Source: Rhizobium sp. Q54
GTDB lineage: Bacteria > Pseudomonadota > Alphaproteobacteria > UBA7879 > VGCX01
Length of the DNA: 64,000 bases
Assembly: GCA_945870825.1 (NCBI GenBank)
Contig: CAMBTM010000004.1
Span: 2,594 to 66,593 of the forward strand
Direction: 5' to 3'
Under the pieces are notes generated by a model that saw only the letters and a list, made by a program, of their open reading frames with translations, did no database searches and had not been told where the DNA came from. Position numbers and translations under genes: made by a program. Numbering within the stretch: the first letter of the stretch is position 1; every line of letters begins with the position of its first letter. Of this stretch, positions 9,625 through 50,308 are shown piece after piece.

Positions 9625-10626
9625 GTGATAAAAATAGCATTTTTCCGTTTTGAAGCGTCTTCAAAAATTGGTGCAGGTCACGCCATTCGATCCTCTGTAT
9701 TAGCAGATGCCTTAACTGAAAAAGCCTGGCAATGTAAGATTGTAACGTCAGAAACATCCTACAATTTTATAAAAGACTTAGAAAGATTTGAGAGAGTTGA
9801 TCCAGATTCTTTTTTTGAAGAAAGACCTTCCTGTGATTTACTCGTCATTGATTCATATGATTTGGGAGAGGATTACGAAAAGCATTTTCGTGATTGTACA
9901 AAAAAAATTATGGTGATTGATGATTTAGCCAATAGAAAACATGACAGCGATATTTTGCTAGATCATACATATGGCCGAGAAGCCTATGATTATAAAGACC
10001 TTGTTCCGGAGGGGTGCAAGATTCTAGCAGGAAGCGATTATGTGTTGCTTCGAAAAGAGTTTGTTGAACTCAGGTCAAAAGCCTTGGAAAAAAGGCGAGC
10101 GACTAAAGAAATAAAACGGCTCTTAATATCCATGGGAGGAAGTGACCCAGAAAATCACGCTGTGAAGGTGTTGGAGATTGTTAGAAAAAGTGGGTTTTCA
10201 GGAGTTATTGACCTTGCTCTAGGGTTTTCTAACCATAATCGCCTTTTGGTAGAAAAATATGCTCAAGACTTTCTTTTAAACGTTAATATTCACCTCAATC
10301 CAGATATGGGTGAGCTCATATATCAAGCGGATTTAGCCATAGGAGGTGGTGGTAGTAGTATGTGGGAGCGTTCTTGTTTAGGACTGCCGACCCTTATGGT
10401 GGTGCTTGCAGATAATCAGTTTTCTATTGCACAAAATCTTCACAAGTCAGGCGCTGCAATTTATTTAGGTGAAATTAATACAATTGATGTTAATGATGCA
10501 TCAACTATTTTAAAAAACTTAATACAAGATAATTTTCAAAGGGAAAGATTACAGAACAATTCATTTCAAATCTGTAATGGGCAAGGGATTTCTTCAATAA
10601 TAGAGGTAATAAATGACGTACATTGA
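9625..10626 (+). CDS. pseG: UDP-2,4-diacetamido-2,4,6-trideoxy-beta-L-altropyranose hydrolase, PseG-like
   Basis: Characteristic PseG N-terminus IAFFRFEASSKIGAGHAIRS, a GT-B fold, and placement between the pseF and pseI homologs. Confidence 0.7.
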   Translation: MIKIAFFRFEASSKIGAGHAIRSSVLADALTEKAWQCKIVTSETSYNFIKDLERFERVDPDSFFEERPSCDLLVIDSYDLGEDYEKHFRDCTKKIMVIDDLANRKHDSDILLDHTYGREAYDYKDLVPEGCKILAGSDYVLLRKEFVELRSKALEKRRATKEIKRLLISMGGSDPENHAVKVLEIVRKSGFSGVIDLALGFSNHNRLLVEKYAQDFLLNVNIHLNPDMGELIYQADLAIGGGGSSMWERSCLGLPTLMVVLADNQFSIAQNLHKSGAAIYLGEINTIDVNDASTILKNLIQDNFQRERLQNNSFQICNGQGISSIIEVINDVH

Positions 10627-13789: not shown

Positions 13790-14476
13790 ATGATCATATC
13801 AATTAATCAGCCAGCTTATTTGCCTTGGCTAGGTTACTTCAATAGAATCGTAAAAAGTGACCTGCATATTGTTTTAGATCATGTGCAGTTTGAGAAAAAT
13901 AGTTTTATAAATAGAAATAAAATACTTTTGGATGGAAAACCTTTGTGGTTGACATTGCCCATATTAACAAAAGGTCATTTCAATGATTTGAGAATCGAAG
14001 ATTTATTGATTGATTCTAAAATAAATTGGGAAAAAAAGCATCTTTCATCAATCATGCAGGCTTACTCAAAATCTTCACATTGGATCGAATTCAAGGATGA
14101 GTTAGAAATAATCTATTCTAAAAATACAGATTCTCTCAGCAATATTTTGGATGATTCTCTAAAATTTTTTATGAAGTATTTAAAGATAGAAACACCTATT
14201 GAGTATTCTTCAAAATACGATTTTCGTGCTAGAAAAAGTGATCTTGTTTTGGAGATTTGCCAGAGATTTCAAGCGCGTTATTATCTTTCTGGTCCTCTTG
14301 GACGAAATTATTTGGAACTCACTAAATTCCAAGATTGTGGTATTGAGATTTTATTTGATGATTATGTGCATCCTATTTATCCGCAAAAATCAGAAAACTT
14401 CATCCCCTACCTATCTACTTTAGATCTTATAGCTAATTGCGGAAAAGAATCATTGAGGGTTTTAACAAATGTCTAA
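13790..14476 (+). CDS. WbqC-family protein
   Basis: Characteristic WbqC N-terminus MIISINQPAYLPWLGYFNRI. Confidence 0.7.
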   Translation: MIISINQPAYLPWLGYFNRIVKSDLHIVLDHVQFEKNSFINRNKILLDGKPLWLTLPILTKGHFNDLRIEDLLIDSKINWEKKHLSSIMQAYSKSSHWIEFKDELEIIYSKNTDSLSNILDDSLKFFMKYLKIETPIEYSSKYDFRARKSDLVLEICQRFQARYYLSGPLGRNYLELTKFQDCGIEILFDDYVHPIYPQKSENFIPYLSTLDLIANCGKESLRVLTNV

Positions 14477-15143
14477 AAATATTCTTATTATTGCGGCGCA
14501 TCCAGATGATGAGGTCTTGGGATGTGGTGCTACAATGGCACGGCATACCCATCATGGTGACAATGTGGGGGTTGTTTTTGTTTCAGACGGTGTTGGGGCA
14601 AGAAATAGTGATTTTGAAAACAATTTAAAAAAGAGGAAAGAATCTGCCCTAAAGGCTTTGAAGATTTTAGGGGCAGATTGCTTAAGTTTTCTAGATTTCC
14701 CAGACAATCGGTTGGATACGATTCCATTTTTGGACATTGTGCAGCCCTTAGAAGATATCATCAACGCGTTTAATCCATCCATAGTGTATACGCATCATTA
14801 TGGAGATCTCAATATTGATCATGCCATTGTCCATCGTGCAATTATGACGGCCTGTAGACCTCTTCCTCATACACCTATAGAGGAAATTTATTCCTATGAA
14901 GTTGTTTCGTCTACTGAATGGGGTTTGCAAGGAGCTTATTTTCAACCTAACCGTTTTGTAGATGTTAGTGATTTTTTTTCAAAGAAGATTGAGGCGATTC
15001 AAGCTTATCATGAAGAGATGCGGCTTTTTCCTCATAGCCGTTCTATAGAACATATTGACGCCCTTGCGGTTCACAGAGGCGCAACTGTTGGACTAAAAAA
15101 AGCTGAAGCTTTTTTTCTAGTACGGGCAATCCATGGTAGATAA
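14469..15143 (+). CDS. PIG-L/LmbE-family N-deacetylase
   Basis: N-terminal ILIIAAHPDDEVLGCGATMA zinc-binding motif. Confidence 0.75.
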   Translation: MSKNILIIAAHPDDEVLGCGATMARHTHHGDNVGVVFVSDGVGARNSDFENNLKKRKESALKALKILGADCLSFLDFPDNRLDTIPFLDIVQPLEDIINAFNPSIVYTHHYGDLNIDHAIVHRAIMTACRPLPHTPIEEIYSYEVVSSTEWGLQGAYFQPNRFVDVSDFFSKKIEAIQAYHEEMRLFPHSRSIEHIDALAVHRGATVGLKKAEAFFLVRAIHGR

Positions 15144-39165: not shown

Positions 39166-41865
39166 ATGAATAATTTCAGTAAAACTTACTTAATAAAAAA
39201 GATTTATTTCAGTTTATTTTTAAGTATTGTAATATTGAGTCATCAGGGTTTTTGTGCAGCAAGTGACTACATTCTTCCACTGGCAGAAAAACATTTTACA
39301 AATTCTATTTGTTGTGTTGAAGGCTTTTGTGCTGTTGATGAGAGATGGATTGAGAATTTCGGCAAACGGGATGTAACTAGAGAAGAGGTTGCTAAACCCT
39401 TTAAATCGGCTCTGCAAAAGAAGATTGATGGGGAAGCTTCTAAAGGAAAAAATATCATTATCGCAGTTAAAGGATCAAGGATTCCTTTAGGATTCAATGA
39501 GGGTGATGGAGAGGCGGAGACAAAAGAGACGGTAGAAGACCGAGATGTTAAGGTAGCAGAGGATCGTGTGTATCGTTCTATTGATGCAAAAGAACTTTTT
39601 GGAGAGGATATCATCACAACCTATGCGGCAAAAGGATACACATTCTGGTCTAGGAATCCTATGAAAGCAGATGATGCGAAACAAGCTGAGAATAGAATTA
39701 ACTTCCAACAAGCCATAGGGGCCCGGTATGTTTGGGGGAGGGACATTGAAGAAGGTGGGATATTACCTGCAGCAACAGACGCTGAGGCAGTTTTGAATAC
39801 CCTAACGCCCCACGTGGTTTTTAGCACAGCAAATTTAAGCGATCAGGCTATTCGAACAAGAATTGAAGCCTTTTTTTATCGGGCCAATAAGGCTGTATGG
39901 CCAGGTATTTCTCCCGCTGGTAGAGAAAAAGAATGGGATGAAGCAAAATTGCTTCATGAATCCGTTGCTAAGGCTGTTGCGGTGATTGATCTGCAACCTA
40001 ATTCAGTCAAGGATTCCCCTGAAGTGCGCCTTGGGTTAAAGCATTCTTATATCCGACGGCTTATTGTTACAACTACGGCGCCAATAGAACCGGGGTTAAA
40101 GATTGGAGATGAATTCCTTTTTGGTTGCAATGAATTAACCTCTCTTGAATTCAGAGGGCTTGAGAGTGTCACAACGATTGGGGATAAATTCCTTGGGGGT
40201 TGTACTGGCTTACTCTCTCTTGAATTGAGAGGATTTGAGAATGTCACAACGGTTGGGAATTACTTTCTTTCTAGTTGTACTGGCTTACAATCTCTTGATT
40301 TGAGAGGATTTGAGAATGTCACAACGATTGGGAATTTCTTCCTTGTTAACTGCACTGCCTTACTCTCCCTGGATTTGAGTCCTTTAATGAATGTCAAAGC
40401 GATTGGGAATTACTTCCTTCTTCGTTGCAGTAGTCTAGACTCTCTGGATTTGAGTCCTTTAATGAATGTCACAACGATTGGGAATTACTTCCTTTATGAC
40501 TGCCCTCACTTAGACCCTCTTGAATTGAGGGGTATTGATTATGTAAAAAAAATTCAGCTCAATAATATTTTTGCACAAAATATTCGTGGCACGGAAGATT
40601 TTCATATTCTAGATATCAGACAGATTGAAAATATCGCCAATGAAAAACAGTGGGAATTAATTAAGGGAGAAGCTTGGAATATTTTAAACTCGCTCCTGCA
40701 AAGAATGCCAGACAAAATAATGCCAAACAGTAGTATTCTCGCAGTAAAAGGAGACATATCCCCGTTGGGTCATGAAGAGGCGGAGACAAAAGGGAAAGTA
40801 GAAGAGCTGGATGTTAAAGAAGCACAGGATACGGGGCATCCTGCTTTACGTGGGTATCATTCGATTGATCCAGTTGTCCTTTTTGGGGACAACATCATCA
40901 CAAGCTATGCGGCACAAGGATATACATTTTGGACTAGGAATCCTATGAAAGCAGATGGTGCGAAACAAGCTGAGAATAGAATTAACTTCCAACAAGCCAT
41001 AGGGGCCCGGTATGTTTGGGGGACGGATATTCAAGAAGGTGGGATATTACCTGATGCAACAGGTCCTGAGGCAGTTTTGAATACCCTAACGCCCCACGTG
41101 GTTTTTAGCACAGCAGATTTAAGAAATGACCCTATTTCACGAAATATTAACGCCTTTTTTGATGCGGCTAATACGCGTGCACGGGGCCCTGGAGGCGCCA
41201 GTGAAGAAGAGATATTAGCGGCTGAATCCAAGGTCAATGCTATTGCTGTAATTGATGTAGAGGCGGTGGAAACTGCTTCAGGCCATGAGCTGAAGCTTTC
41301 ATCGAGTAACTTATCTAAAATCCGACGGCTTATTGTTACAACTACGGCGCCAATAGAACCGGGGTTAAAGATTGGAAATGAATTTCTTTCTTCGTGCACG
41401 GAATTAACCTCTCTTGAATTCAGAGGGTTTGAGAAGGTCACAACGATTGGGGATGACTTCCTTATTATTTGTAACGGCTTAACCTCTATTGATTTGAGTG
41501 GTTTAAGGAATGTCACAACGATTGGGAATGGCTTCCTTTGCTTATGTATTCGCTTACAATCTCTTAATTTGAGAGGGCTTGAGAATGTCAAAACGATTGG
41601 GAATTCCTTCCTTTGCCGTTGTGCTCGCTTAAAATCTCTTGATTTGAGTCCTTTAATTAAGGTCACAACGATTGGGAATTACTTCCTTGGGGATTGTACT
41701 GGGTTAACCTCTCTTAATTTGAGGGGGCTTGAGAATATCACAACGATTGGGGATAATTTTCTTGCTAATACTAGTCCTCAAATTATTTCCATTAAATCAG
41801 CGATTGAAGCTAGGCCAGAACCTACTTTGGCAGAGAAAGTGAAGGGGTATATTGAAATCCGTTGA
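39166..41865 (+). CDS. Secreted leucine-rich-repeat protein (BspA-like ~23-aa LRR units); internally duplicated two-module paralog
   Basis: Sec signal peptide MNNFSKTYLIKKIYFSLFLSIVILSHQGFCA. Repeated units LTSLDLRGFENVTTIGNxFLxxCTG. Residues ~130-450 and ~540-899 are paralogous copies. Confidence 0.8.
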   Translation: MNNFSKTYLIKKIYFSLFLSIVILSHQGFCAASDYILPLAEKHFTNSICCVEGFCAVDERWIENFGKRDVTREEVAKPFKSALQKKIDGEASKGKNIIIAVKGSRIPLGFNEGDGEAETKETVEDRDVKVAEDRVYRSIDAKELFGEDIITTYAAKGYTFWSRNPMKADDAKQAENRINFQQAIGARYVWGRDIEEGGILPAATDAEAVLNTLTPHVVFSTANLSDQAIRTRIEAFFYRANKAVWPGISPAGREKEWDEAKLLHESVAKAVAVIDLQPNSVKDSPEVRLGLKHSYIRRLIVTTTAPIEPGLKIGDEFLFGCNELTSLEFRGLESVTTIGDKFLGGCTGLLSLELRGFENVTTVGNYFLSSCTGLQSLDLRGFENVTTIGNFFLVNCTALLSLDLSPLMNVKAIGNYFLLRCSSLDSLDLSPLMNVTTIGNYFLYDCPHLDPLELRGIDYVKKIQLNNIFAQNIRGTEDFHILDIRQIENIANEKQWELIKGEAWNILNSLLQRMPDKIMPNSSILAVKGDISPLGHEEAETKGKVEELDVKEAQDTGHPALRGYHSIDPVVLFGDNIITSYAAQGYTFWTRNPMKADGAKQAENRINFQQAIGARYVWGTDIQEGGILPDATGPEAVLNTLTPHVVFSTADLRNDPISRNINAFFDAANTRARGPGGASEEEILAAESKVNAIAVIDVEAVETASGHELKLSSSNLSKIRRLIVTTTAPIEPGLKIGNEFLSSCTELTSLEFRGFEKVTTIGDDFLIICNGLTSIDLSGLRNVTTIGNGFLCLCIRLQSLNLRGLENVKTIGNSFLCRCARLKSLDLSPLIKVTTIGNYFLGDCTGLTSLNLRGLENITTIGDNFLANTSPQIISIKSAIEARPEPTLAEKVKGYIEIR

Positions 41866-41866
41866 A

Positions 41867-42067
41867 AACAGGAAGAATCAAAAAAATGATCTCTTTGAAA
41901 ATATGAGAAAATCCTACTTAAAATCAGGGGGGGTGGGATTATTGTGCGCAGGGTTTTGAACAGGAGACTCAAACTTAACAAGAGGTTATCAGATTGTTGA
42001 AGCTTCCAGAAAATCCGGTTGAATTACCCCCCGAGATATGATGTACTGAAGAAAACAGGGGGACAAT
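41867..42067 (+). repeat. ~200-bp intergenic repeat, copy B
   Basis: Near-identical to 38964-39165. Confidence 0.85.
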
Positions 42068-43702
42068 ATGAATAATTTCATTAAAACTTACTTAATAAAA
42101 AAGATTTATTTCAGTGTATTTTTAAGTATTGTAATGATGAGTCATCAGGGTTTTTGTGCAGGAAGCTCAGCGCGCGCTGCAGGAGCCCCAGAGCGCTCTG
42201 CTAGTCAACTACCACCTGGTGTTGCTGGCAAGATGGTTTCTTTTTTAGATTCAAAAAGTCAGGCGGCCTATCATGCGACCTCTAAAGATGCGCGCGATGA
42301 TGTTGTTGATGCAAAAAAAATTAACTTGGAAGATGCTTTTAAACGAGCAGTTCATTGTAAGTCAGGTTTTTGTATTCTAGATATGCGAGAGATTCAAAAT
42401 ATCGCCAATCACCCGGAGTGGAAATTAATTAAGGGAGAAGCTTGGAGTATTTTAAACTCGGTCCTGCAAAGAATGCCAGATAGTAGTATTCTCGCAGTAA
42501 AAGGAGACATATCCGCGTTGGGTCATGAAGAGGCGGAGACAAAAGGGAAAGTAGAAGAGCTGGATGTTAAAGAAGCACAGGATACGGGGCATCCTGCTTT
42601 ACGTGGGTATCATTCGATTGATCCAGGCTCGCTTTTTGGGGAGAACATCATTACAACCTATGCGGCACAAGGATATACATTTTGGTCTAGGAATTCTATG
42701 AAAGCAGATGGTGCGAAACAAGCTAACAATAAAATTAACTTCCAACAAGCCATAGGGGCCCGGTATGTTTGGGGGACGGATATTCAAGAAGGTGGGATAT
42801 TACCTGATGCAACAGGTCCTGAGGCAGTTTTGAATACCCTAACGCCCCACGTGGTTTTTAGCACAGCAAATTTAAGCAATCAGGCTATTCAAACAAGAAT
42901 TAGAGCTTTTTTTGATGCGGCTAATAGGCGTGCAAGGGGCCCTGGAGGCGCCAGTGAAGAAGAGATATTAGCGGCTGAATCCAAGGTCAATGCTATTGCT
43001 GTAATTGATGTAGAGGCGGTGGAAACTGCTTCAGGCCATGAGCTGAAGCTTTCATCAAGTGTTGCCTTGGCCTTATCTAAAATCCGACGGCTTATTGTTA
43101 CAACTACGGCGCCAATAGAAACGGGGTTAAAGATTGGAGATGAATTCCTTTTTGGTTGCAATGAATTAACCTCTCTTGAATTGAGAGGGTTTGAGAAGGT
43201 CACAACGATTGGGGATGGCTTCCTTTTGGGTTGTACTGGGTTAACATCTCTTGATTTGAGTCCTTTAAGGAATGTCACAACGATTGGGCTTGCCTTACTT
43301 GAGGGTTCTACTGGCTTAAAATCTCTTGATTTGAGTGGTTTAAGGAATGTCACAACGATTGGGAATGAATTCCTTTTGGGTTGCACTGGGTTAACCTCTC
43401 TTGATTTGAGTCCTTTAAGAAATGTGACAACGATTGGGTATAGGTTCCTTTGTGACTGTACTGGATTAACCTCTCTTGATTTGAGAGGGCTTGAGAATGT
43501 CACAACGATTGGGGATGACTTCCTTTCTGACTGTACTGGATTAACCTCTCTTGATTTGAGAGGGCTTGAGAATATCACAACGATTGGGGATAATTTTCTT
43601 GCTAATACTAGTCCTCAAATTATTTCCATTAAATCAGCGATTGAAGCTAGGTCAGAACCTACTTTGGCAGATAAAGTGAAGGGGTATATTGAAATCCGTT
43701 GA
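42068..43702 (+). CDS. Secreted leucine-rich-repeat protein, single-module paralog of the upstream gene
   Basis: Same signal peptide and C-terminus as the 899-aa gene. Long identical stretches (ARGPGGASEEEILAAESKVNAIAVIDVEAVETASGHELKLSS). Seven BspA-like LRR units. Confidence 0.8.
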   Translation: MNNFIKTYLIKKIYFSVFLSIVMMSHQGFCAGSSARAAGAPERSASQLPPGVAGKMVSFLDSKSQAAYHATSKDARDDVVDAKKINLEDAFKRAVHCKSGFCILDMREIQNIANHPEWKLIKGEAWSILNSVLQRMPDSSILAVKGDISALGHEEAETKGKVEELDVKEAQDTGHPALRGYHSIDPGSLFGENIITTYAAQGYTFWSRNSMKADGAKQANNKINFQQAIGARYVWGTDIQEGGILPDATGPEAVLNTLTPHVVFSTANLSNQAIQTRIRAFFDAANRRARGPGGASEEEILAAESKVNAIAVIDVEAVETASGHELKLSSSVALALSKIRRLIVTTTAPIETGLKIGDEFLFGCNELTSLELRGFEKVTTIGDGFLLGCTGLTSLDLSPLRNVTTIGLALLEGSTGLKSLDLSGLRNVTTIGNEFLLGCTGLTSLDLSPLRNVTTIGYRFLCDCTGLTSLDLRGLENVTTIGDDFLSDCTGLTSLDLRGLENITTIGDNFLANTSPQIISIKSAIEARSEPTLADKVKGYIEIR

Positions 43703-47768: not shown

Positions 47769-49133
47769 TTAGTTGGAAAGGATACGGGACAAAAGATCGA
47801 TATCATTCCGCAATGAAATATCACCTAATTTCAATTCTTCTATTTTTTTCACAGCATGCATGACTGTCGTATGGTCACGGCCCCCGAACTTTTTACCAAT
47901 TTCAGGCAAAGACCGGGTGGTCAGCTGTTTACTCAGGTACATTGCAACTTGGCGAGGACGTGCCACACATCGTAGACGCTTAGGAGAATGCATGTCACTG
48001 GTACGCACATTAAAATGTTCAGCCACTTGGCGCTGAATATCTTCAATCGTCACATGACGTTCATTAGCACGCAGCAGATCTTTGAGGACCTGTTGGGTTG
48101 TCTCGAGAGAAACTTTTCCACCAACCAGGGTTACGTGGGCCAAGATTCTATTCAGGGCACCTTCTAGTTCACGAATGTTGGATGTGATTTTATAGGCCAA
48201 GAACTCTAAAACTTCCGCTGGGATGGTGACATCCAGCTTTTCAACTTTAGATTGGAGAATGCCTAAACGAAGCTCGTAAGACGTGGGGTGAATATCTGCC
48301 ACAAGACCCCATCCCAGGCGAGAACGCATGCGTTCTTCAATACCCTGCATTTCGGACGGTGACTTATCGGCAGACAGAATAATTTGTTTCTTTTGGTCAA
48401 CTAAGGAATTGAAGGTGTGGAAAAATTCTTCCTGGGTTGATTCTTTGCCACTGATGAACTGGACGTCATCGATCATAAGAACATCTACAGAACGGAAGTA
48501 TTCACGAAAGTCGATGATGTTTTTATTCCGTAAAGCCCGGATGAATTGATACATGAACTTTTCAGCGGACATGTAAATGACCTTGCGATCCTTGCGATGT
48601 ATGTGAAGGTGCCACGCCACGGCATGCATCAAGTGGGTTTTTCCAAGCCCAACCCCGCCATAAAGAAAGAGGGGGTTGAAATTAACCTGGTCTGTTTCTG
48701 CTACGCGGCGTGCTGCCGCATAAGCCAATTCATTGGGTTTGCCAACCACGAAATTCTCAAAGGTAAAGCGGGGGTCAAGGCCTGCTGTGTGGTCATTCAA
48801 CGGAGCTTTTCTTGCCTCCACATCAGGCATCATAAAGGGAGCTTGGGTAGGTTCATCGGTTAAGACGGGAACGGCATCATTCACAATAACGTCAATAGCA
48901 TGAACATCAGGGGACTTTTCTTGCCAACACGCCAATAACTTAGAGAGATATCGGGCCTGAATCCAATCGCGGATAAAAGGGGTTGGAACAGAAAGCACAA
49001 CTTTCCCGCCCAGGTCTTCCTCAAACCTGAGAGATTTTAACCAGCCACGATAAGCATTTTCCCCAAAAATTTCTTGAAGGGAAACAGCAATATCGCGCCA
49101 GATAGCTTGTTGATCATACGTATGTGCGTTCAT
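47769..49133 (-). CDS. dnaA: Chromosomal replication initiator protein DnaA
   Basis: AAA+ Walker [11 protein letters not shown] and Walker [10 protein letters not shown]-terminal DnaA-box-binding HTH ([11 protein letters not shown]). 454 aa. Confidence 0.95.
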
Positions 49134-49216
49134 GATAAGTGTCTTTAGAATTAATCTAACCCACTCTATCCGATTTTAGAAAGAGGTACAATGAGAAGAG
49201 AGAAAAATATTTTTTT

Positions 49217-49851
49217 ATAGCAAATTAGATTAACAAAAACGCACCCCCCGAGGCCATCATCACGAGGAGCAAGGCTTTTGCGAAGCGGAAGCTTCTGGAA
49301 ACTGCGACGTGGTGACCCAGGAAGATTTAGCTATCTGGCTAAACAACCATACATTTTTAAGGACCAACGTAAATTGTCATGTGCTAGCGCATCGCCTTTT
49401 GGCTGATCCTGGGTCACCACGTCGTGCCTGCGGCACTCCTCGTGATCTGATACAACGCCCACGAAATGTGTGAGAGAAATGTAGGCTTTTTTTGGTTTAA
49501 AGTCCTTGAAAATACTGTATTTTAGCCCCCCCCGACGCCGTCTTCCAGAGCCCCGCTGCAAGCGAGGCGTGGGATCCAGAAGGTTAGCCGAATGGCTAAA
49601 ATGGCCCCTTTCAACCCTCTAAAATGGTGAGGGAGTCAAATCTTGAGTAGCCCTAACGGGCTATTTTTCTGGATCCCACGCCCACCTTCGGTGGGCTTTG
49701 GAGGACGGCACTGGTGGGCTTTAGGGGTGTCTGAATGATCGATGGAGAGAAGGGTTTTTCTTTATCACACATTTCGTGGGGATGTATCAGCTCGTGATGA
49801 CGGCCTTGGGGGGGATTTTTTGGGTGCGTTTTTGTTAATCTAATTTGCTAT
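49217..49851. repeat. 635-bp non-coding element bounded by perfect 30-bp terminal inverted repeats, with several nested internal inverted repeats (MITE-like or structured-RNA-like)
   Basis: ATAGCAAATTAGATTAACAAAAACGCACCC at 49217-49246 is the exact reverse complement of 49822-49851. The imperfect inverted repeat extends about 25 bp further inward. Internal perfect inverted repeats: 49305-49321/49408-49424, 49568-49585/49665-49683, and 49457-49473/49765-49781. Confidence 0.6.
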
Positions 49852-49855
49852 ATCC

Positions 49856-50308
49856 CTAAAAAAGACCGGTTGATCCAAATCCTTCAGGATTTCTGCCGGT
49901 TTCCTCAGATCTTAGGTTTTCTCGTGTGTCAAATGTCACCTGAGCGATAGGGGCGATGATAAGCTGGGCGATCCGCATCCCGCGTGTGATGACAAAGTCC
50001 TCTTCGCCTAAATTAATAAGAATTACCTTAAGTTCCCCCCGGTAATCAGCGTCAATGGTCCCAGGGGTGTTGAGAACTGTGATGCCATGTTTGAAGGCAA
50101 GCCCAGACCGGGGGCGAATTTGCCCTTCAAACCCTCGAGGCAGGGCAATCATGATACCAGAGGGAACTAATGTTCTTGCTCCTGGTTTGAGGGTAAGGGA
50201 ATCCTCAATGGCTGCCATAAGATCTACGCCTGCGCTATCCAGTGTTGCATAACGCGGGAGTTCTAAGCCTTTTCCATGGGGGGCTTGTTCAATATGTACG
50301 GTGAGCAT
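49856..50308 (-). CDS. dut: dUTP diphosphatase
   Basis: MLTVHIE...[12 protein letters not shown]...[10 protein letters not shown] dUTPase motifs. Start placed at the internal Met of the longer ORF. Confidence 0.9.

Follow-up and report, generated by a model that had tools for sequence, protein, structure and literature searches.

A nested palindromic block between dut and dnaA is probably a non-coding mobile element of a dispersed repeat family

Why should the short interval between dut, encoding dUTPase, and the replication initiator gene dnaA be filled by an elaborate palindromic structure? The question is raised by a 64-kb stretch of contig CAMBTM010000004.1 (referred to here as the window), in which the dut-dnaA spacer had been described, from the letters alone, as a palindromic element that could be a non-autonomous transposable element similar to a MITE (a transposable element of the miniature inverted-repeat kind), a large structured non-coding RNA (ncRNA), or a structured regulatory or replication-related element. 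Our analysis favors the first of these. With a probability of roughly 0.8, the block is a non-coding mobile element with terminal inverted repeats, belonging to a composite bacterial MITE-like family, that inserted upstream of the dnaA promoter. Three observations carry this assignment: related copies are found at other loci, the orthologous site is empty in the closest relative, and TA flanks the element at both ends. The eye-catching structure beside dnaA is a recent insertion, and neither an origin of replication nor a conserved regulator.

A repeat search of the window places the outer inverted repeat at 49216–49246 and 49822–49852, where 31 bp (rather than the 30 bp first reported) are 100% complementary. 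The match is far beyond chance, as the originally quoted 30-mer occurs at only these two places in the 64-kb window and had 0 matches in 100 shuffles. The arm pairing then extends imperfectly for 23 nt at 91% complementarity (49244–49266 and 49791–49813), close to the 25 bp or so given before, and all three inner inverted repeats are present at slightly corrected coordinates: a perfect 18-bp repeat (49305–49322 and 49407–49424), a perfect 16-bp repeat (49458–49473 and 49765–49780), and a 24-nt repeat at 88% (49566–49589 and 49659–49682) that includes a perfect 16 bp (49566–49581 and 49667–49682). The element proper is 633 bp long (49218–49850), with ends that read TAGCAAATT...AATTTGCTA, and a TA abuts each end, at 49216–49217 and 49851–49852. 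On the plus strand, the left terminal inverted repeat (49218–49266) comprises a perfect part (49218–49246, TAGCAAATTAGATTAACAAAAACGCACCC) and an imperfect arm (49247–49266, ...GAGGCCATCATCACGAG), and the right arm and right terminal inverted repeat together cover 49799–49850, of which 49822–49850 is perfect. The 722-nt spacer folds at −335 kcal/mol on the plus strand (z = −16.7 vs shuffles) and −315 kcal/mol on the minus strand (z = −11.5). Coding capacity is absent, as had been proposed: the spacer contains open reading frames (ORFs) of 54 aa (plus strand) and 76 aa (minus strand) only, no gene was called in it in the source assembly, and the product of the 76-aa antisense frame is not on record among the called proteins.

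The first line of evidence that this block arrived from elsewhere comes from the same locus in relatives, for which a protein search returned DnaA homologues at 79–86% identity. The closest relative (P0122, DnaA 86% identical, represented by the three independent assemblies L090, L091, and L092) retains the gene order ubiE-dut-dnaA-pyk-spoU-plsY-dprA and has a dut-dnaA spacer of 102 bp. Read in the direction from dut to dnaA, L090 has ...GGCGA-TA-AAAAAATATTTTTCTC..., and the window has ...TAG (the dut stop) GGA-TA, then the element (TAGCAAATTAG ... CTAATTTGCTA), then TA-AAAAAATATTTTTCTC... On the plus strand of the window, the single TA of L090 lies within GAGAAAAATATTTTTT-TA-TCGCC, compared with ...TTTTTT-TA-(element)-TA-TCCC in the window. 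The two flanking TAs are therefore putative copies of a target-site duplication, the left one corresponding to the single TA of L090 and the right one lying 3 nt from the dut stop codon (49856–49858). An 18-nt block beside the TA (49200–49217) is identical in the window, L090, and L099 (18/18), and L099, whose DnaA is 85% identical, has this conserved block and lacks the element. Because the 18-nt identity ends at the TA and at the end of the inverted repeat, the insertion boundary on the dnaA side is exact. The element was absent from every relative examined at the dnaA locus, and it would have entered a dut-dnaA spacer of about 100 bp after the split from the nearest sampled relative. One candidate for a native origin of the sequence was rejected: MAFFT aligned the spacer of the relatives to the tip of the inverted repeat, but their similarity does not exceed chance (p of about 0.06–0.5), and the same tip occurs in another copy of the family (P, see below).

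The relatives also show what else can occupy this position. The dut-dnaA interval or the region upstream of dnaA holds two unannotated ORFs in L099, a DUF4143 ATPase in L095 (DnaA 80% identical), and an unrelated divergent gene in L102 (DnaA 82% identical), and a conserved dnaA-proximal region of about 100 bp is kept in L090, L099, L095, and L102. The boundary just upstream of this conserved region looks like a local insertion hot spot, because a different insert is found there in almost every relative sampled.

The second line of evidence is that the sequence is repeated in the same organism, an outcome that had been named in advance as the sign of a MITE. With the window copy designated E, copy X was located on the contig of a major facilitator superfamily (MFS) gene in the sample of the window (L084, k141_3266925), at L084:9526-9898. 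It lies upstream of the MFS gene and is 90% identical over 261 bp to window positions 49562–49820. Copies Y, Z, and P were located on the contig that carries the dut gene in a second sample (L088). Copy Y (L088:~14098-14625) is complete, about 500 bp long, and has near-perfect inverted ends of about 85 bp (GGCTCTTATGCAAAACGAGTGGGTAAGCATTTAAAAACACCCCCGCTGCCCGTCATCCAGAGCTGA...), copy Z (L088:10454-10910) is a hybrid, and copy P (L088:19975-20086) is a short solo end with the same terminal GTTAATCTAATTTGCTGTA as the window copy, the left terminal sequence of which recurs at L088:20063-20081. All copies are intergenic, beside unrelated genes, and in either orientation. A TA directly precedes five of seven ends (both ends of E, the left end of Y, the right end of X, and P), where about 10% would be expected by chance, and a TA also precedes Z, with its offset slightly shifted. 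Copies X, Y, and Z contain the same inner unit between diverged versions of the same arms. Across copies, the likeness of arms follows their side, left with left and right with right (X and Y have TCATAAATTTC in common in the right arm, as opposed to left arms of the CACATTTC type), and this pattern indicates copying of whole units, not independent selection for pairing.

Beyond this organism the family appears to be narrow in its distribution. It was not found in about 70 kb of close relatives or at 80 more distant dnaA loci, an exact-pattern scan with two conserved core words gave 0 matches in GTDB representative genomes and JGI metagenomes, and a blastn search of the element against plasmid and phage collections gave no match. 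A 17-nt word of the inverted-repeat tip had one match in IMG/VR, which was set aside as chance since no extended similarity accompanies it.

A closer look at copy E reveals a composite build, one unit within another, that the sequence-only reading had overlooked. The inner unit, A′, is 344 bp long (49447–49790, plus strand), is the part common to X, Y, and Z, and has 27-bp inverted ends (49447–49473, CTGATACAACGCCCACGAAATGTGTGA, and 49764–49790) that are complementary at 25 of 27 positions. Directly outside it lie the left (49439–49446) and right (49791–49798) copies of an 8-bp direct repeat, CTCGTGAT; these are its only two occurrences on the plus strand of the window, and they border A′ exactly. 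Within A′, hairpin C (49535–49711, plus strand) has outer arms at 49535–49552 and 49694–49711 and a stem formed by the 24-nt repeat at 49566–49589 and 49659–49682, which holds three small hairpins (TTAGCC-GAAT-GGCTAA, CCCTC-N9-GAGGG, and TAGCCC-TAAC-GGGCTA). About 100 nt of hairpin C are identical among E, X, and Y. To the left of A′ lies module B (49267–49438, plus strand), a hairpin core whose stem is the perfect 18-bp repeat and whose loop is 84 nt. An alignment of E with Y shows the interior and arms to be common to both and E to have an extra 180-bp segment, which is module B, missing from the simple copy Y. Hairpins B and C (the latter at 49566–49682) are paralogous at the stem and the start of the loop (GTGACCCAGGAAG..TTAGC..GGCTAAA and ..G[GT]GA[CT]CCAG[GA]A..TTAGC..GGCTAAA), and the arm motif GCCGTCATCACGAG returns in variant forms throughout E. 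Copy E is thus a mosaic of a few palindromic modules. The simplest reading is that A′ is nested, with an 8-bp duplication, in a hairpin element of about 290 bp whose outer ends are the 31-bp repeat; alternatively, module B may be a secondary acquisition. In X, Y, and Z, the junction of A′ with homologous arms is in the same place, and what has spread must therefore be the composite or derivatives of it that arose by deletion.

Bacterial MITEs are described as intergenic elements without coding capacity that have terminal inverted repeats, 5′-TA-3′ termini, and a target duplication (PMC2229807), and the features seen here agree with this description, the duplication of the target being putative. 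Terminal inverted repeats are present (31 bp and perfect in E, about 85 bp in Y), coding sequence is lacking, and dispersed copies in one genome are represented by X, Y, Z, and P. In the proposed mechanism, a transposase provided in trans would have inserted the element at a TA by cut and paste. The TA flanks suggest a transposase of the IS630/Tc1-mariner type, as these enzymes are the best-known class that duplicates a TA. The cognate insertion sequence (IS) would have ends matching TAGCAAATTAGATTAAC or TAGGAATTTAAAAGGCTCTTATGC. Once dispersed, the repeats may act as homology patches, and contigs of the second sample do swap partners inside them.

Several points weigh against the mobile-element assignment. 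The TA duplication is deduced from a comparison between different species rather than from a polymorphic empty site, and the relatives have about 14 nt more between the dut stop and the TA, such that the dut-side junction is not one-to-one. The check for a target-site duplication that had been suggested for this locus shows TA on both sides in the window and a single TA in the relative, in a comparison of filled and empty sites across species whose dut flanks differ by about 14 nt. The right end of Y is without a TA, and the CTCGTGAT direct repeat could equally belong to a right arm that is present twice instead of being a target duplication. No autonomous element, nor a transposase with matching ends, was found in about 125 kb of DNA of this organism, whose genome is represented by a few metagenome contigs, and an IS21, which is unrelated, was the sole IS encountered nearby. 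The abundance of the family, at least 4–5 loci in about 125 kb, comes from biased sampling in which one repeat led to the locus of the next, and no second copy is present in the approximately 74 kb read of the dnaA contig (the window and about 10 kb beyond its right end). Finally, at 633 bp and with arms of up to about 85 bp, the element is far above the <200 bp typical of bacterial MITEs (PMC2229807); Y at about 500 bp and the inner unit at 344 bp likewise exceed the usual <200–300 bp. This size limit is a convention, not a mechanism, and the excess size of E is a consequence of its nested build.

Some of the same observations could be accommodated by a dispersed palindromic repeat of the REP/BIME/REPIN kind, which would not be mobilized by a transposase but would disperse through recombination, through gene conversion, or with the help of a RAYT-type enzyme, and would be maintained because its hairpins, placed between genes, act in termination, in insulation, or as RNase III sites. 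That every copy is intergenic, that modules are shuffled among E, X, Z, and P as in mosaic BIMEs, that no transposase partner was found, that the genome has a second, unrelated palindromic family, and that contigs switch partners within the repeats would all fit this explanation. It is at odds with the defined terminal inverted repeats and the TA at most ends, with the sharp insertion boundary relative to the closest relative, and with the 8-bp direct repeat that borders the inner unit. REP units are also 20–40 bp long, compared with 340–630 bp here, no RAYT gene is present in the loci read, and the family does not have the make-up of REP/BIME/REPIN arrays. We consider this explanation unlikely, and the transposase-mobilized element remains the preferred one.

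The extreme folding of the spacer raises the question of whether it is instead a structured ncRNA or a cis-regulatory leader of dnaA, or an antisense RNA, made from the plus strand. The strand asymmetry is an argument in favor of such an RNA. In addition to the difference in z-score (−16.7 vs −11.5), the plus strand structure is 20 kcal/mol more stable and contains 25 G·U pairs, as opposed to 12 on the minus strand, and where stem substitutions among copies are one-sided, they keep a plus strand G·U pair about 12 times and leave an A·C mismatch 3–5 times. The three-hairpin core of about 100 nt is also identical in three copies. However, strand-biased C-to-T mutation can yield such a G·U bias, and the asymmetry may come from either mutational bias or strand-specific selection. 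Covariation as support for an RNA is essentially absent: in a comparison of E, Y, Z, and X, RNAalifold gives a covariation term of −0.56 kcal/mol, and both sides have changed in no more than 3 of 107 pairs. Rfam models gave 0 matches at the gathering score over the whole window and only chance-level ones in a permissive search of 49000–50000 (E ≥ 0.4, to eukaryotic miRNA and snoRNA models), a tRNA and tmRNA scan found none, and the element does not belong to an Rfam family of structured RNAs. The middle hairpin is disrupted in copy Z, perfect duplexes of 18–31 bp are typical of DNA repeats rather than of folded functional RNAs, copies sit beside unrelated genes in either orientation, and relatives that keep the dnaA locus do not have the element. 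Together, these results make a dedicated ncRNA or leader very improbable and argue against the earlier suggestion of a large structured ncRNA, although a plus strand transcript from the element would be compatible with them.

A more speculative variant joins the two ideas and sees in the family something beyond selfish DNA. The asymmetric core, with its long stem and three hairpins, might encode a structured RNA that the element carries, acting in cis as a processing or insulator module or serving as a guide-like RNA for a recombinase. The hints in this direction are again the approximately 100 nt of core that are identical in three copies and the preference of stem substitutions for G·U on one strand, and we regard the possibility as highly unlikely. 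If it were true, the placement beside the dnaA promoter and the partner swaps in a sister strain would be a programmed, not an accidental, rearrangement.

A replication-related role had been considered worth testing given the position immediately upstream of dnaA, and that location is the one thing found in favor of assigning the block to the origin of replication or to a regulatory region bound by DnaA. No DnaA box TTATCCACA with ≤1 mismatch occurs in 49134–49855, and in the whole window such boxes are barely enriched (27 vs 19.7 expected). The cumulative GC skew climbs steadily across 49 kb and shows neither a minimum nor a turning point there. The two mapping approaches proposed to place oriC here returned no origin signature, and the element does not constitute an oriC or a DnaA-box cluster. 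Relatives lack the element, and the same repeat occurs at non-origin loci. A role of the element as part of the origin or as a regulatory site for DnaA is accordingly extremely improbable.

Could the structure be a product of assembly, as a spurious hairpin or a chimeric metagenome join? The window is 100% identical to contig k141_2051500 (88 kb) of ENA assembly ERZ27280271, and a second assembly, ERZ27280276, also contains most of the element. In a third dataset, the Logan contigs of run ERR3719156, the two ends of the element are found next to dnaA and dut, respectively; the contig with dnaA stops exactly inside the proximal 31-bp arm and that with dut inside the distal one. These breaks arise because a k=31 graph meets a 31-bp inverted repeat, which also accounts for them without their being a sign of many copies. 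Assemblers do struggle at this locus, and hybrids in the second sample switch partners in the repeat. Still, the perfect arms extend over just 31 bp, beyond which come arms that have diverged and are no longer identical, and then a unique interior, and ordinary syntenic genes lie on both flanks. An artefact is thus a virtually negligible explanation.

The hybrids themselves deserve attention. The contigs of ERZ27280271 read dnaA-E-dut and ORF-X-MFS, and those of ERZ27280276 read dnaA-E(left)-X(right)-MFS (L001/L085) and dut-E(right)-Z-DUF465 (L088). The L001/L085 contig has the same dnaA, with the MFS gene in place of dut upstream of it; its identity to the window covers dnaA and two thirds of the element, after which it continues in a diverged version of the far arm. 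The cross-overs fall in the core of about 100 nt that is identical between copies, and elsewhere the two samples differ at about 0.12–0.16% of positions (99.84–99.88% identical). Either a real repeat-mediated rearrangement in a sister strain or path-switching by the assembler could produce these swaps, and whichever is the cause, they imply that the sequence is repeated. If the rearrangement is real, it would separate dnaA from dut in the sister strain.

What the insertion means for dnaA depends on the region that it left in place. The dnaA gene lies on the minus strand at 47769–49133 (Pfam DnaA_N, Bac_DnaA, and Bac_DnaA_C), and dut lies on the same strand at 49856–50308 (Pfam dUTPase), with a C-terminus, GFGSTGLF*, that is orthologous to GFGSTGLS* of the relative. 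Alignments with L090 and L099 identify 49134–49215 (minus strand) as the retained native upstream region of dnaA. The insertion point is 83 bp from the dnaA ATG on the upstream side and directly adjoins the upstream edge of the conserved block at 49200–49217, which is A/T-rich and UP-element-like (AAAAAAATATTTTT). On the minus strand, a putative −35 element, TTGTAC (49186–49191), is followed after a 17-nt gap by a putative −10 element, TAGAGT (49163–49168), and the relative has TTGTGA-17-TATATT at the same place; a consensus promoter scan called no site at this −35/−10 pair of the window. The insertion probably left the dnaA core promoter intact, and it may have been tolerated because that promoter was spared. 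Any transcription that reads through from dut would meet 633 nt of extreme secondary structure on its way into dnaA.

Two further observations concern this upstream region. A perfect DnaA box (TGTGGATAA) is found in the dnaA promoter region of the more distant relatives L095 (~9955-9965) and L102 (~1100-1110), just upstream of the conserved TAGAGT, and it is lost at the equivalent position in the window (49163–49190), L090, and L099. In addition, a direct repeat of 21 nt (76%) links 49151–49171, at the −10 and leader of dnaA, with 49835–49855, at the right end and flank of the element. It was rejected as the relic of an end, as the first copy is the ancestral dnaA leader and is present in relatives; because this copy is ancestral, the similarity is probably chance.

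The organism that carries the family has no near neighbor in GTDB. The best DnaA match among GTDB representative genomes is 62% identical, and the DnaA of Ca. Paracaedimonas acanthamoebae is 64% identical. The gene content includes LRR_5, Fic, and HipA proteins and an MFS transporter with best named matches from Legionella, which suggests an uncultured alphaproteobacterium with a host-associated lifestyle.

Several other features of these contigs were recorded along the way. A second palindromic family, unrelated to the first, occurs at window positions 60328–60541, between an SBP gene and an ABC permease gene, where a GCAGGCGGGGACCCAG hairpin is bordered by tandem TTGTCATCCCCGCGC motifs on one side and their inverted copies on the other, in 52-nt arms that are 96% complementary; a related copy lies at L088:11102-11154, adjoining Z. 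On the same contig as the window, about 4.5–7 kb past its right end, the IS21-family element noted above (L103:14903-17166), which is unrelated to the palindromic family, encodes IstA, with an rve domain, and IstB, and has CCGTTCACGA repeat arrays at both ends. At 51175–52065 (plus strand), a 296-aa protein has an N-terminal hydrophobic, signal-peptide-like segment, KKVPV repeats, and an RNase III-like domain that falls below Pfam cut-offs (PF14622, E = 2e-4; PF00636, E = 1e-3), and may represent an RNase III-like protein that is secreted or divergent. Two paralogous LRR_5 genes (899 and 544 aa, internally 80–95% identical) lie at 39166–43702 (plus strand) between dprA and topA; because dprA is directly followed by topA in L090 and L099, this pair is a lineage-specific insertion. 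Lastly, a co-directional run of about 31 kb (1–31745, plus strand) has a G+C content of 33–43%, compared with about 45% elsewhere, and includes a Wzy_C O-antigen ligase-like protein and an ABC exporter, and is probably a surface-polysaccharide cluster. The orientation of its genes on one strand accounts for the steady positive GC skew.

Taken as a mobile element, the block beside dnaA represents a lineage-specific family of palindromic repeats, not described before, in an uncultured lineage of alphaproteobacteria. For a bacterial MITE, the size of the element and its hierarchical nesting are unusual. The insertion borders exactly on the conserved, A/T-rich block in the promoter region of dnaA. 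For annotation pipelines, such repeats are of practical concern, as they break or mis-join metagenome assemblies.

How does this family compare with known systems? The Correia elements (CREE) of Neisseria are known for an IHF site, promoters, and RNase III processing. Like the window element, they are non-coding and intergenic, with terminal inverted repeats of about 26–30 bp and TA at both ends, form long hairpins when transcribed, often lie just upstream of genes, and are recombination substrates (PMC2229807). They differ in being 100–155 bp long and single-layered, whereas the window element is 633 bp and nested, with arms of up to about 85 bp in a sister copy, and the two share no sequence similarity. 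The RUP element of pneumococcus, likewise non-autonomous and with inverted repeats, has TA as its insertion site, as does IS630-Spn1, to which it is attributed, and it provides a model for mobilization in trans by the IS630 family (PMC2229807). RUP is 107 bp long and its ends match an IS of the same genome, whereas no matching IS was found for the window element in the approximately 125 kb of its organism. The REP/BIME/REPIN units with RAYT are similar in being intergenic palindromic units in mosaic, nested arrays with hairpins that may act on transcripts, but they are without the transposon-type terminal inverted repeats and TA duplication, where the window family has both inverted ends and TA flanks. 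The Rickettsia palindromic elements (RPEs), along with further repeats known from intracellular alphaproteobacteria, offer another parallel, as a lineage-specific palindromic family in an alphaproteobacterium, a group to which the present organism, of suggested host-associated lifestyle, also belongs. RPEs are 100–150 bp long and often lie in frame in coding genes, whereas the copies of the window family are all intergenic and without sequence similarity to them. The closest analogues of the element between dut and dnaA are therefore the Correia elements and RUP, with REP/BIME/REPIN and RPEs more distant.

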